A stretch of DNA of 64,000 nt from an uncultured bacterium (GTDB lineage: Bacteria > Patescibacteriota > JACMRA01), in contig OY969926.1 in assembly GCA_963704645.1 (NCBI GenBank), forward strand, positions 1,056,001-1,120,000, in the 5' to 3' direction. Made by a program: the position numbers and the translations under genes. Below the pieces are notes generated by a model. It had not been told where the DNA came from. It ran no database searches and worked only from the letters and a program-made list of their open reading frames with translations. Below are positions 19,325-49,270 of the stretch, piece by piece; positions within the stretch are counted from its first letter, which is position 1, and each line of letters begins with the position of its first letter.

Positions 19325-20314
19325 CTAAACTCTAAAACATTGGACCAAAATTGGAGCTTTGTCTTTATTTACTACATAATAGCTTTGAAAAAAACGTTGC
19401 AAAAATTCCTCTGCTAAAGCATTTTCTCTGTTTTCAGTTTCTGTTTCCACTTCGCCAGTACCCGCTAGAATGTAATTTCCTACATTAATTAATTTTCCAC
19501 CTCTAATATTTTGTATAAAAATACTGCCAAGTTCCAAACCTTCAGCGTCTGTTCTTGCTACCAAAGTAACCAAATCTATATCGGTGGGTTGTGGTAAAAT
19601 AATTTTTTGGGTTCCAATTGTGTCTTGCAAAATGTTTAATCTGTCTCGCCACATTGCTGCTAAAGCAAAGTTTCCAGCAACAACTGCATTACCAATTTTT
19701 TGTTGAATAAAATCTTGTACAAGTTCGGTTTTACCCTCTAAAACATTTTGAATTTGCTTAATTTTTTGTGAATAATCTTGAATATTTTCTTTGCCAACAC
19801 ATATTCCATCACACTGTTTTATACCATAATAATTACAAGGCCGCTTCTGAGGAGTACGCTCCTGACAGTAAGGAAAAATTGTTCTTAAAGTTCGCAGAGT
19901 GTTGTAAATGTTGCTTTGTTTTGTATACGGCCCAAAGTACAAACTAGCTGGATCGTATTTTTTTCGAACTAAAAATATTGCTGGAATTACATCGTTGGTA
20001 ATTCGTACATATACATAACTTTTGTCGTCTTTCAGCAAAATATTATACTTCGGCTGAAGATTATGAATTAAATTAGCCTCTAAAATTAAACTTTCTTTCT
20101 CGGAAGCAACCACAGTGTATTCAATTCTATCAATTCGGCTAATCATTAAAGTTAACCTTTGGTTCTTTGGCCTTCCTTCCTGAAAATAGCTTGCAACCCT
20201 ATTCTTCAAGTTTTTGGCTTTACCAATATATAATAATCCACCGTCTTTATCGTAGTACCTATAAACACCAGGTTTTTGCGGTAAATTTTTAATTGTGGAC
20301 TTGAAATCTGACAT
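19325..20314 (-). CDS. uvrC: UvrC N-terminal half (GIY-YIG, Cys-rich, UVR and middle domain)
   Basis: LPQKPGVYRY..LLYIGKAKNLKNRVASYF, PKYNILLKDDKSY, YFGPY; stops after SYY...KAPILV with no RNase H-like or HhH domains. Start taken at MSDFK (20314). Confidence 0.92.
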   Translation of the reverse strand: MSDFKSTIKNLPQKPGVYRYYDKDGGLLYIGKAKNLKNRVASYFQEGRPKNQRLTLMISRIDRIEYTVVASEKESLILEANLIHNLQPKYNILLKDDKSYVYVRITNDVIPAIFLVRKKYDPASLYFGPYTKQSNIYNTLRTLRTIFPYCQERTPQKRPCNYYGIKQCDGICVGKENIQDYSQKIKQIQNVLEGKTELVQDFIQQKIGNAVVAGNFALAAMWRDRLNILQDTIGTQKIILPQPTDIDLVTLVARTDAEGLELGSIFIQNIRGGKLINVGNYILAGTGEVETETENRENALAEEFLQRFFQSYYVVNKDKAPILVQCFRV

Positions 20315-20444
20315 TGAACTTAAACAATAAGTAAATTGTTTTTGGAATTTATACAAGCTTATTTTGAAGTGCAATACCAATGCAAGCACATAAATACTTG
20401 TATTATTTTATTCTATCGCTGAACCTTTACAAAACAAAAATTGC

Positions 20445-20906
20445 ATGATTGTAAATAAAGGCAAAAGCACATTACTGGCGAGAACTAAAATCATGAAAAA
20501 GAAACATCCTTTGTATCGTCTCACTGACCAAGGATTACACCTAGTTGTTTCGACTCTAGTCGAGAGAACAAAGACTGAGTATGGCGGAGTTCTACAAGAT
20601 GCCATAGCAGGAATTCTTTTCGAAGGTGATTCAACAGAAGCTTTCAGTGTTGTGAACGATTTTATAGAGGCAGCAGAAAAGACTAGCATTTCTCTCGAAG
20701 GAATTACTACCTACAACGAGGAGGAATTGGTGAGAACATTGCTCTTTGTAGCAGTTGATGATAAGGATTTCAATGGTGATTTTAGGAAAGCTATTCAAGA
20801 ATGCATAGCGAGGGACTGGACAGAAGAATCTTTAACCGAAGAAGTTAATAGGTTGCTTGAACTTGCTAAAAAACATAATATTTCTATTGAGGGAATATTA
20901 GTTTAG
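20445..20906 (+). CDS. Hypothetical protein
   Basis: Acidic helical ORF; terminator at about 20918-20950 resembles the one at 5477-5510. Confidence 0.6.
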   Translation: MIVNKGKSTLLARTKIMKKKHPLYRLTDQGLHLVVSTLVERTKTEYGGVLQDAIAGILFEGDSTEAFSVVNDFIEAAEKTSISLEGITTYNEEELVRTLLFVAVDDKDFNGDFRKAIQECIARDWTEESLTEEVNRLLELAKKHNISIEGILV

Positions 20907-20981
20907 ATTTTACAGAGTAGATCTTCTTCTGAAGGTCTATTTTTATTTTGAATAATATTTGCTAGCTAATATACGTATTCA

Positions 20982-21944
20982 CTATTCCCGTTCAGAAACA
21001 TATTGAGCCAATTTCAACAAATTCCAAAACAAGCACAAAACTGTTAGCGGGCCAATTCCCCCTGGGCTTGGACACAAAACTACGTTTTCAGATAAATTAT
21101 TTTTATCTACATCACCAATTAGACTTCCTTCTACATCGCTAGTTCCTGCATCAATAACTATAGCATCATCTTTTAACCAGCTAGAATTAATTAGATTTGG
21201 AACGCCTACCCCAGAAATTACAATGTCAGCTTGTTTGGTTAAAGTCTCTGGGTTTTTTGTATCTTTGTTTATAGAAATAATTGTAGCCTCAGTTTTAGCC
21301 AGCCAATTTAAAGTTGGGCTTCCCACCAATTTCCCTTGCCCTACAACAGCCACAGTTTTGCCCTTTAAATTAATTTTATCAGGAATTATCTTTTCATCAA
21401 CAACCAAATTTGTTTTTGAATCAAACTCAGATATTTGGCTTGATTTTGATGTTTCTTCTGTTTTCTGAACTGCAGATTTAGAATTTATGATTTCGTATAA
21501 ACATAGCTGAATGGCCTGTACTGTTGGCCAAAATATATTTTTATTCAACAAATTCGGCCAGTTATTAGATAGTAAATCTACGTCAGAAAAAACTGGAACT
21601 TGTTCAATATATTTTGCAAATTCTTGAGCTAAGGGAAGTTGGAAAATTATTCCTTGGTATGAACTTGATTCTAATTTGGATAACTCTATCACTTTCAATA
21701 AAGACTGTATTTTGAAATGAATATCTTCTTCTTGCCCAGAAAACTTATGTATCACAACTTTCACCCCAAGCTCGGCCCCAAGTTTTTGCTTTAAATTAAC
21801 GTATTTTATAGAACTTAAATTGTCTCCAATTAAAACAATATTTAAAACCAAAGGCAAATATAGCTTATTGTATTCAGCAATTTCTGATATTAAAAAGTTT
21901 TTTAATCTAAGCTTTAAACTAGCGTTACTAAAAATTGTACTCAC
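20982..21944 (-). CDS. folD: Methylenetetrahydrofolate dehydrogenase/cyclohydrolase
   Basis: GIIFQLPL, DVD, VVGQGKLVGSP, VIDAG, GDVD, PGGIGPLT. Confidence 0.92.
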   Translation of the reverse strand: MSTIFSNASLKLRLKNFLISEIAEYNKLYLPLVLNIVLIGDNLSSIKYVNLKQKLGAELGVKVVIHKFSGQEEDIHFKIQSLLKVIELSKLESSSYQGIIFQLPLAQEFAKYIEQVPVFSDVDLLSNNWPNLLNKNIFWPTVQAIQLCLYEIINSKSAVQKTEETSKSSQISEFDSKTNLVVDEKIIPDKINLKGKTVAVVGQGKLVGSPTLNWLAKTEATIISINKDTKNPETLTKQADIVISGVGVPNLINSSWLKDDAIVIDAGTSDVEGSLIGDVDKNNLSENVVLCPSPGGIGPLTVLCLFWNLLKLAQYVSERE

Positions 21945-47716: not shown

Positions 47717-47717
47717 T

Positions 47718-48233
47718 ATGTTAAATAAAATTGATTTTATAATTGAACCAGCATTGAAAGAAGATTATAAAAGTCTAAATTGGGTTAATAAACAAACTTG
47801 GTTGCACACTTACCCTAATGAAGAAAACAAAATAACTTTAGAGGATATTAAAAACTTGCCTTGGACTAAATTTGAGGGAGACTGGAGAACAAAACTTGCA
47901 TCTTTTGAGGAAGGTTTATACTACTTTAAAGCCAAAATTGATAATAAAATTGTTGGATTTATTGTAATTAAAGAGTTGGCGGAATTTATAGCCATCGGCT
48001 CCATATACATTTTACCAAATTATCAGAATCTGGGAATAGGATCAGGTCTTGTAAATCACGCACTTAAATTTGTTTCAAAGCAAAAACCAATTGTAATTAA
48101 AGTTGCTGAATACAACCTAAACTCAATTAATTTCTACAAAAAACTTGGTTTTGTTTACGATGAAAAAATATCCGATTTTCAACTATCTCCAAATAAAGCT
48201 ATTCCGCAAATTAAAATGGTTTGGAATAGATAA
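47718..48233 (+). CDS. GNAT acetyltransferase
   Basis: IYILPNYQNLGIGSGL (motif A) and N.NSINFYKKLGF (motif B). Confidence 0.9.
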   Translation: MLNKIDFIIEPALKEDYKSLNWVNKQTWLHTYPNEENKITLEDIKNLPWTKFEGDWRTKLASFEEGLYYFKAKIDNKIVGFIVIKELAEFIAIGSIYILPNYQNLGIGSGLVNHALKFVSKQKPIVIKVAEYNLNSINFYKKLGFVYDEKISDFQLSPNKAIPQIKMVWNR

Positions 48234-48250
48234 AGCTCAAAAAAACACCC

Positions 48251-49270
48251 CTAAACTCCAAAATACTTCTTCAATTTAGAAAATACATTGGCTCCAACCA
48301 GTTCGTGGATTAGTTCAGGGTTCTTATCTATAGCTGTGGCAATTGCAGCAACCGATCCGAAGGTGGAAAGCAGCTTTTGCTTAGTTACAGGGCCTATTCC
48401 AATAATATCGTCTAGTTGACTTTTAGAAATAGTTTTAAGTCTGGCATTGCGGTTGTTAGTAATGGCAAATCTATGGGCCTCATCACGAATACGTTGCATC
48501 ATAAATCTGGACTGGCCTTCCAATAAAACAGGAGCGCTTTGGTTTGGTAAAAACACTTCTTCCTCTTTTTTAGCCAAAGAACAAATTTCAATTTTACTCA
48601 ATAAGTTAAATTCAGTTAGCACCATTTCATCTGAACTTAATTGACCTTTTCCGCCGTCTACAATAATTAAATCTGGTAATTCCCAAGGGTTTGGCTTTGG
48701 TGTTGCCGCCAATCTTAAGTCTTTATCTTGGTTTTGCAATGCGCCCAGATCCAGTTTTTCTTGGCATTCAAAATACTTTTTAATTCTACGGGTTAAAACT
48801 TCTCTATGATTGGCAAAATCGTCGTTTTGTTCCTTAGTTTTGAACAATCTATAATCTTTTGAGGAAGGTCTTCCGTCTTTAAAAACAACCATTGAACCAT
48901 AAACAAATTTACCCGAAAGATGGGAAATATCGTAACATTCCATTCTTCTTGGAACTTTTTTCAAACCAAGCTTTTGCTGAATTTCCACCAAGGCCAGATA
49001 TAGGTTATTTTCCTCAAAAATGTTCAGCCTTTGCCCCAATTGCTGTCTTTGTAAATAAATAAAAGCGTTTTGTTTAGCTAAATCTTGCAACTGCGAAATT
49101 TCAATTTGGTTTTCTTGCATTACATTGCGCAAATAAACCTCAGTTCCAGCTAGTTCAGCTAAATTATCTTTTTGCTGAGTAGTTAAATTCACTCTAACCA
49201 AGGCGGTGTTATTTTGTAAATCTGGATTCAAAGGTAGATTTTCAGGAAGTAAAGCGGAATTGTCTTGCAT
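48251..49270 (-). CDS. uvrC: UvrC C-terminal half (RNase H-like endonuclease plus HhH)
   Basis: LAKQNA, PRRMECYDISH, DDFA, PDLIIVDGGKGQ, IRDEAHRFA, LDDIIGIGP. Confidence 0.93.
   Translation of the reverse strand: MQDNSALLPENLPLNPDLQNNTALVRVNLTTQQKDNLAELAGTEVYLRNVMQENQIEISQLQDLAKQNAFIYLQRQQLGQRLNIFEENNLYLALVEIQQKLGLKKVPRRMECYDISHLSGKFVYGSMVVFKDGRPSSKDYRLFKTKEQNDDFANHREVLTRRIKKYFECQEKLDLGALQNQDKDLRLAATPKPNPWELPDLIIVDGGKGQLSSDEMVLTEFNLLSKIEICSLAKKEEEVFLPNQSAPVLLEGQSRFMMQRIRDEAHRFAITNNRNARLKTISKSQLDDIIGIGPVTKQKLLSTFGSVAAIATAIDKNPELIHELVGANVFSKLKKYFGV

Follow-up and report, generated by a model that had tools for sequence, protein, structure and literature searches.

A naturally two-gene UvrC in a class of Patescibacteria

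UvrC is the textbook single protein that makes both cuts of bacterial excision repair, and the coupling of its two distant active sites is still debated. Whether this enzyme can also be encoded in nature by two separate genes is the question raised by the locus described here. The window, that is, the whole stretch of DNA that was analyzed, comprises 64,000 nucleotides from the genome of an uncultured bacterium (GTDB lineage Bacteria; Patescibacteriota; JACMRA01; assembly GCA_963704645.1, contig OY969926.1, positions 1,056,001 to 1,120,000 of the forward strand). The original prediction, made from this sequence alone, held that uvrC is present as two complementary genes about 28 kb apart, and both open reading frames (ORFs) were confirmed on the minus strand by the ORF list and by profile matches:

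19325..20314, minus strand, uvrC-N, 329 amino acids from the ATG at 20314
48251..49270, minus strand, uvrC-C, 339 amino acids

The genome is a single contig of 1,272,640 bp. The original prediction proposed to look for a full-length uvrC elsewhere; when the uvrC model and PF08459 were run against the entire genome, only the two half loci were recovered, each of which scores below the cut-off of the whole-protein model TIGR00194 (262.1 bits for uvrC-N and 175.9 bits for uvrC-C, against 285.45). The genes uvrA (a 993-codon frame) and uvrB (763 amino acids, L209 371–2662, with a weak C-terminal UVR motif) are intact, and the excision-repair pathway is therefore otherwise complete. The uvrB product has about 115 extra residues between the UvrB domain (577–618) and the weak UVR motif (734–757). 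We conclude that the locus represents a naturally two-gene UvrC that is fixed in a class of Patescibacteria, a known enzyme in a novel two-gene form. No description of a natural split uvrC was found in the literature, in a search that did not extend to most subscription journals.

Domain content of the two halves and the site of the cut

The start of uvrC-N was placed at the ATG at 20314 and not at the GTG at 20389, which is also possible and would yield a longer protein, because the homologues are 325–327 amino acids long. The protein aligns to positions 2–301 of the 574 positions of TIGR00194. It consists of a GIY-YIG 3'-incision nuclease (PF01541, E 8e-12 in a Pfam search), a four-Cys motif, a putative helical UvrB-binding (UVR) region, through which the TIGR00194 alignment continues, and, up to the C-terminus ...APILVQCFRV, the start of the central RNase H-like domain (inactive), comprising three strands, a helix and a fourth strand. 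In alignments with crystal chains from Thermotoga and Bacillus (1yd6 and 1ycz) the GIY-YIG motif residues are retained, and residues Y18, Y29, R39, E79 and N91, which correspond to the catalytic Tyr/Tyr/Arg/Glu/Asn set of GIY-YIG nucleases, are invariant in an alignment of 88 sequences. The four cysteines that follow this domain (C150, C160, C168 and C172) are likewise invariant in the same alignment, and correspond to the iron-sulfur ligand set given in the Figure 1 legend of PMC10085695.

The product of uvrC-C contains the UvrC RNase H domain (PF08459 UvrC_RNaseH_dom, E 1e-45 in the Pfam search) and aligns to positions 346–622 of the 652 positions of NF001824. Residues ~22–80 complete the central RNase H-like domain, and are followed after residue ~80 by the catalytic RNase H-like 5'-incision domain and then by a putative helix-hairpin-helix region. 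The motifs DISHL, VDGG and DEAHRF, which carry the Asp/Asp/His residues, align with the Thermotoga chain 2nrt, and D114, D205 and H266 are invariant across 90 sequences. Conservation extends to the first 90 residues of the protein, where N68, Y72, L73, R75 and L82 are invariant in the same set. The HHH_5 profile reaches 23.9 bits in uvrC-C, below its cut-off of 27, and the region aligns with the helix-hairpin-helix part of chains 2nrt and 3c65. The catalytic motifs are thus kept in both halves, as had been claimed from the sequence.

The two pieces were mapped on a 639-codon full-length frame from the class, in which residues 3–327 of the N-half correspond to positions 8–323 and residues 19–339 of the C-half to positions 325–638. 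The pieces thus tile a whole UvrC, with nothing lost or duplicated. The earlier view that the halves do not overlap in domain content holds for the sequence, which tiles without overlap, but not for the fold, since one domain is divided between both chains. In the joint alignment the N-halves end a few residues past a conserved hydrophobic strand (...PVLVQVF..), and the C-halves start just before a conserved strand-helix-strand (..KINLT..QK..LE.L.G.KIYLRN), with the ATG usually within four residues. The cut lies at one identical alignment site in all halves from the class.

For G020, a class member with an unsplit gene, the full-length protein was modeled with AlphaFold2 from a 121-row alignment (mean predicted local distance difference test, pLDDT, 89.9; predicted template modelling score, pTM, 0.56). 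In this model, the first part of the central domain consists of strands 248–258, 262–273 and 276–287, helix 293–306 and strand 314–323, and the second part, reached through a two-residue turn, consists of strand 326–330 and helices 334–344 and 358–380. The cut corresponds to the turn between strands 314–323 and 326–330, within a block with a pLDDT of 95. In one outgroup UvrC the PF22920 domain spans residues 253–365 and the cut maps to about its middle, and PF22920 is weakly matched at the tail of the N-half of the congeneric genome G001 (profile positions 15–56 of 116). As judged from the model, the cut falls in a β-hairpin turn within the central inactive RNase H-like domain (PF22920) and not in a linker. 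The start of the C-half, which had been read as a divergent linker, carries elements of this domain according to both the model and the PF22920 mapping. The same domain is termed RNase H1 in the UvrC of Deinococcus (PMC10085695). Many other Patescibacteria, among them the outgroup genomes G026, G028, G030, G033–G037 and G040, contain a single short UvrC of ~450–535 codons that is devoid of model positions ~230–365, that is, of the whole central RNase H-like domain that is bisected in this class.

Conservation of the split and the predicted complex

The original prediction proposed to look for the same split in relatives. Within the class, which is grouped here as its order and represented by 27 species genomes including that of the window, separate N and C frames were found in 23 species spanning at least 16 genera, and a single full-length gene of 631–636 amino acids in the other 4 (G005, G020, G008 and G013, from three genera). 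The N- and C-halves co-occur in all 23 split genomes. They are located on different contigs in 21 of these, frequently in the middle of contigs of 50–110 kb, are adjacent in G001, which belongs to the genus of the window, and are 28 kb apart in the genome of the window.

Both halves are also abundant in metagenomes, with more than 100 protein clusters of each, several of both kinds on contigs of hundreds of kb. In a large protein collection, the best 120 C-half clusters are all 255–399 amino acids long and contain PF08459 and no GIY-YIG domain. The best 120 N-half clusters are all 314–440 amino acids long, with PF01541 in 111, only PF27096 in 9 and PF08459 in none; a precomputed match to PF02151, the UVR motif, is present in 28 of these 120. 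The source names of the clusters are 'excinuclease ABC subunit C', 'GIY-YIG nuclease family protein' and 'hypothetical protein'. Outside the class, a sample of the phylum was searched that comprises 201 genomes, one of them unpublished (G169) and counted only there. Among the matches listed, beyond which there are 61 further rows, the PF08459 frames are 383–782 amino acids long except for two shorter ones. These two are a 285-codon frame in G096, from another family of the phylum (C31:24449-24925), which could be an independent uvrC split or a fragment, and a 376-amino-acid frame in G160 that begins close to a contig end, at a distance of ~440 bases. The split itself does not stem from misassembly.

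Selection on each half, another proposed check, was estimated by the Nei-Gojobori method for the window and three relatives of its genus. The ratio of nonsynonymous to synonymous divergence (dN/dS) is 0.032–0.083 for the N-half and 0.031–0.100 for the C-half, values that are only rough for the pairs with the window, which are saturated (dS > 1.5). The unsaturated pair G001/L132 (dS 0.23 for N and 0.35 for C) gives 0.046 and 0.031, respectively, and the segments that flank the cut (N 239–329 and C 22–92) give 0.02–0.19. These values indicate strong purifying selection on both halves. It is highly unlikely, then, that the gene is in decay or that the halves have taken up roles outside UvrABC repair. 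Such a reading would account for the score of each half below the NCBIfam uvrC cut-off, for the NCBI names 'GIY-YIG nuclease family protein' and 'hypothetical protein', and for one relative with a frameshifted C-half and one with a truncated N-half, but it conflicts with a dN/dS of 0.03–0.10, with the retention of every catalytic residue, with the conservation of the split in at least 16 genera and with the intact uvrA and uvrB.

The complex of the two halves, whose prediction had been suggested as a check, was modeled and gave an ipSAE (interaction prediction score from aligned errors) of 0.69 (0.70, 0.69 and 0.69 in individual runs), compared with 0.00 for the best control. In the calibration, 58 of 80 solved complexes and 2 of 110 mismatched pairs reach this mark. 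The runs have at least 76% of their contacts in common, and the partner pLDDT is at least 72. The predicted interface is formed by residues 239–329 of the N-half and 22–80 of the C-half. In the model, N-half strand 322–327 packs between C-half residues 25–27 and 44–46, and the N-half helix near 301–310 lies against C-half residues 33–37. No solved chain covers the interface in a sequence search of the PDB, where the matches cover only N 5–100 and C 93–314. The complex model corresponds to the central domain rebuilt across two chains.

Laboratory-made halves of UvrC provide a biochemical reference for this arrangement. According to PMC10085695, UvrC-N and UvrC-C of Deinococcus radiodurans, when combined, yield wild-type dual incision in vitro, and N-half constructs bind UvrB whereas the C-half (RNase H2 plus helix-hairpin-helix) does not. 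By analogy, a two-subunit UvrC appears biochemically plausible.

We consider it probable that a true fission of uvrC took place in the ancestor of the class, and that both products have been kept for excision repair as a non-covalent heterodimer. The two chains would re-form the central domain by strand complementation, the N-subunit would dock the resulting UvrC heterodimer on UvrB, and the heterodimer would make both incisions, like single-chain UvrC. The two-subunit enzyme envisaged in the original prediction is therefore supported, its binding and activity being predicted.

Several observations weigh against a heterodimer of this kind. The complex score expresses the confidence of the model itself, and the halves of any one protein tend to score well through recognition of the single-chain fold, so that the result would speak for complementarity of the pieces and not for binding in the cell. 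The calibration counts hold only roughly here because the input alignments were self-built (88 rows for N and 90 for C). Since the Deinococcus halves work without a shared domain (PMC10085695), repair need not strictly depend on a stable heterodimer. In most genomes the two genes are unlinked and show no sign of being co-regulated; scans for promoters and terminators near them yielded no more matches than shuffled sequences did and are uninformative. The UVR motif PF02151 reaches 14–15 bits in close relatives, below the Pfam cut-off of 21.5, and has no match in the uvrC-N of the window at E 0.01. Finally, 3 of the 23 split genomes contain a damaged or cut piece. The N piece of G012 is 165 amino acids long and stops at about residue 155 in the middle of a contig, and its C piece reaches a contig edge; the C-half of G017 carries a frameshift in its nuclease domain, within the variable loop; and the C piece of G022 is cut by a contig end. 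In addition, the N piece of G016 has an insert of ~90 amino acids after the GIY-YIG domain. The oddities of G017, G012 and G016 could be sequencing errors, decay or further splits.

Some of these points would also fit halves that function in repair independently, with no stable heterodimer. UvrB would then recruit the N-half for a 3' cut in the manner of the stand-alone nuclease Cho, and the C-half would bind the 3'-nicked DNA by itself and make the 5' cut. A recruitment route of this type is proposed for the laboratory-made halves, which share no domain, in PMC10085695, and no linkage of the two genes is seen in 21 of the 23 split genomes. We regard independent action as unlikely, however, because the cut bisects a folded domain of which neither fragment should fold alone, conservation and purifying selection are evident in the elements of these fragments, the predicted interface coincides exactly with the bisected domain, and N and C occur together in 23 of 23 split genomes. 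The position of the cut, inside RNase H1 in nature and after RNase H1 in the laboratory construct, favors an obligate heterodimer over independent halves.

History of the split and local gene order

The order of events was addressed with trees of UvrC and of RNA polymerase subunits. A tree of the concatenated N and C parts groups the class (support 99) and the four full-length genes (96) on a weak backbone, and a clade of all split genes is not rejected (approximately unbiased, AU, test, p 0.234). In the rpoB tree, rooted with 11 outgroups, G025, from the other family, branches first and the full-length clade lies deep among the split species, although with rpoB alone a tree with all split species together is not rejected (AU p 0.289). 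The rpoB plus rpoC tree (36 rows, 2479 columns, LG+G4, quick search) recovers the topology of the rpoB tree with supports of 96–100. It rejects the tree with all split species together (log-likelihood difference 115.8, AU p 1.5e-5), a result to be read with the caveat that the group was chosen after the first tree and that the simpler model rejects a few true clades.

Read literally, the species tree calls for a minimum of two changes, and the simplest reading suggests a fission at the base of the class and a re-fusion in the ancestor of the three full-length genera. An ancient fission at the class base, after which adjacent genes in one three-genus clade were re-fused at the same hairpin, is put forward here tentatively. 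Alternatively, uvrC may have been split six or seven times independently at the same hairpin, or an unsplit copy may have been acquired from an early-branching lineage of the class that has not been sampled, a scenario with which the UvrC tree is compatible. The genus of the window branches next to the full-length clade, and its adjacent N-to-C order is the arrangement that a re-fusion would need.

Gene order in this class appears unusually scrambled. In the genome of the window rpoB (G000:C1, 1005031–1007715) and rpoC (471803–475003), which are normally neighbors, are half a genome apart. Among the 22 other class genomes in which both were located, the two genes are on different contigs in every case but one (G010), compared with 15 outgroups in which they are adjacent in 13, on different contigs in one and a few kb apart in one.

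The following features surround the two halves in the window, where IS denotes an insertion sequence:

49271..49313, minus strand, 43-bp spacer from the stop of the Clp gene to the start of uvrC-C
49314..51854, minus strand, Clp-type AAA+ ATPase, directly upstream of uvrC-C
20982..21944, minus strand, folD, which precedes uvrC-N both here and in the sister species and travels with the N-half
18178..19293, minus strand, IS copy 1, 1116 bp, with an rve-family transposase at 18216–19193
41131..42246, plus strand, IS copy 2, inverted relative to copy 1 and 99% complementary to it
22026..22054, minus strand, 29-nt IS-end match (93%) between folD and the next gene

G001 carries, in sequence, the Clp ATPase gene, a 244-amino-acid ORF, folD, uvrC-N, a spacer of ~370 bp and uvrC-C, with 76 bp between folD and uvrC-N. 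Two metagenome contigs of the genus (L132 and L133) likewise have N, a spacer of ~430–590 bp and C. In the window, IS copy 1 begins 31 bp after the uvrC-N stop, where the relatives have the spacer and uvrC-C, and the two IS copies bracket a segment of 21.8 kb with uvrC-N at one end. Most of the 43-bp spacer is conserved with the stretch immediately 5' of uvrC-C in the three relatives of the genus, which places the rearrangement breakpoint at the upstream edge of the spacer. At least two rearrangements are needed between a G001-like order and that of the window. By dS the window is the outgroup to the three relatives with adjacent halves, which leaves some doubt about the direction of change within the genus; with an IS located precisely at the breakpoint, separation in the lineage of the window is the likelier course. 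Neighbor-gene synteny across genera is almost nil, and distant genera therefore cannot decide between ancestral adjacency and ancestral separation in the genus of the window. The 28-kb distance is likelier to be particular to this genome, the halves having been separated by IS-associated rearrangements.

The IS is present in eight near-identical copies in the genome, and target-site duplications are not clearly readable from them. One of these copies adjoins the N-half, which would fit an assembly error at repeated IS copies as the source of the split or of the 28-kb distance. The chance of this is very slim, given that 22 further genomes and hundreds of metagenome proteins show the same split, and that the run from the Clp stop through the 43 bp to the uvrC-C start is unique sequence without an IS. 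Because of this unique, IS-free junction the N-half cannot sit immediately upstream of uvrC-C.

The adjacent halves of the genus relatives, with their 370–590-bp spacers, also bear on whether the products are joined into one chain by an intron or a split intein, to which we give almost no credence: no Rfam intron match was found at E up to 1 in the spacers of L018 and L133 (two of the three loci), and the halves are unlinked in most genomes. Of the candidates considered, a split intein was ruled out, as N and C tile the relatives of 631–636 amino acids residue for residue without extra segments, and such exact tiling leaves no room for intein pieces. An intron in the spacer of the genus relatives was rejected, with nothing relevant in Rfam for L018 and L133. 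An alternative genetic code that would fuse the frames is not applicable to halves 28 kb apart or on different contigs; under table 11, long genes such as uvrA (993 codons) and the Clp gene (846 codons) read as uninterrupted frames.

Some further features were observed in these regions. The spacers of L018 (2467–2836) and L132 (~6967–7510) contain a small ORF of ~66–68 amino acids, 41% identical between G001 and L132 (E 2e-13), which has no BLAST match in L133 and is absent from the genome of the window. A 153-amino-acid ORF without a Pfam match (20445–20906, plus strand), followed by a terminator-like hairpin, lies between folD and uvrC-N in the window. Solo matches of 25–29 nt to the IS end occur by the dozens, scattered over the genome, and the meaning of the 29-nt match listed above is accordingly uncertain. 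Most IS copies have a GC-rich palindrome at their left end. Two direct-repeat pairs of ~136 nt are located at 59332–60068 and 14427–15498, with 88% and 80% identity and spacings of 601 and 935 nt, respectively.

Comparison with known systems

A class that has run its repair on two subunits over the long term implies that the covalent linkage of UvrC is dispensable in nature, and not just in vitro. The natural halves provide ready-made material, already optimized by nature, for the study of incision order and coupling, and of what the central RNase H-like domain, still poorly understood, contributes. If the re-fusion is true, the class would offer a rare documented passage from one chain to an obligate two-chain enzyme through a bisected domain and back to one chain, and a natural experiment on the need for covalent coupling of the two incision activities. 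The naming of the halves as 'GIY-YIG nuclease family protein' or 'hypothetical protein' means that repair capacity is likely under-called, and completeness or pathway surveys that demand a full-length UvrC would score these organisms as having none.

Compared with canonical single-chain UvrC (TIGR00194), the domains and their order are shared, with the UVR and helix-hairpin-helix regions putative here, the catalytic residues do not differ, and uvrA and uvrB accompany the halves. The difference is that two genes are found here, cut inside the central domain, with neither half over the whole-protein cut-off. Cho, a UvrC homologue restricted to the N-terminal half, is a stand-alone GIY-YIG and UvrB-binding protein that can make the 3' incision in E. 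coli; it coexists with a full UvrC and is not known to have a partner C-half. By contrast, the N-half described here always occurs with a C-half in genomes that have no full UvrC, and scores 80.9 bits on the Cho model NF007833 (cut-off 367) against 262 on uvrC. In eukaryotes, XPG and XPF-ERCC1 make the two incisions of excision repair as separate polypeptides. Their nuclease families are not known to be related to those of UvrC save for the ERCC1-like helix-hairpin-helix, and there is no homology in the split.

Genes divided between two ORFs, in some cases separated by a small ORF, are described as 'fractured genes' with split inteins (PMC2677866). The uvrC halves differ from that description in having no N-intein or C-intein segments and in tiling exactly. 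In the laboratory split of Deinococcus UvrC, the 3' and 5' nucleases also reside on two polypeptides. According to PMC10085695, the laboratory cut was made after the whole of RNase H1, whereas the natural cut lies within it and would leave the natural halves with a built-in docking surface. Unlike the laboratory construct, the natural split has been fixed evolutionarily in a whole class.

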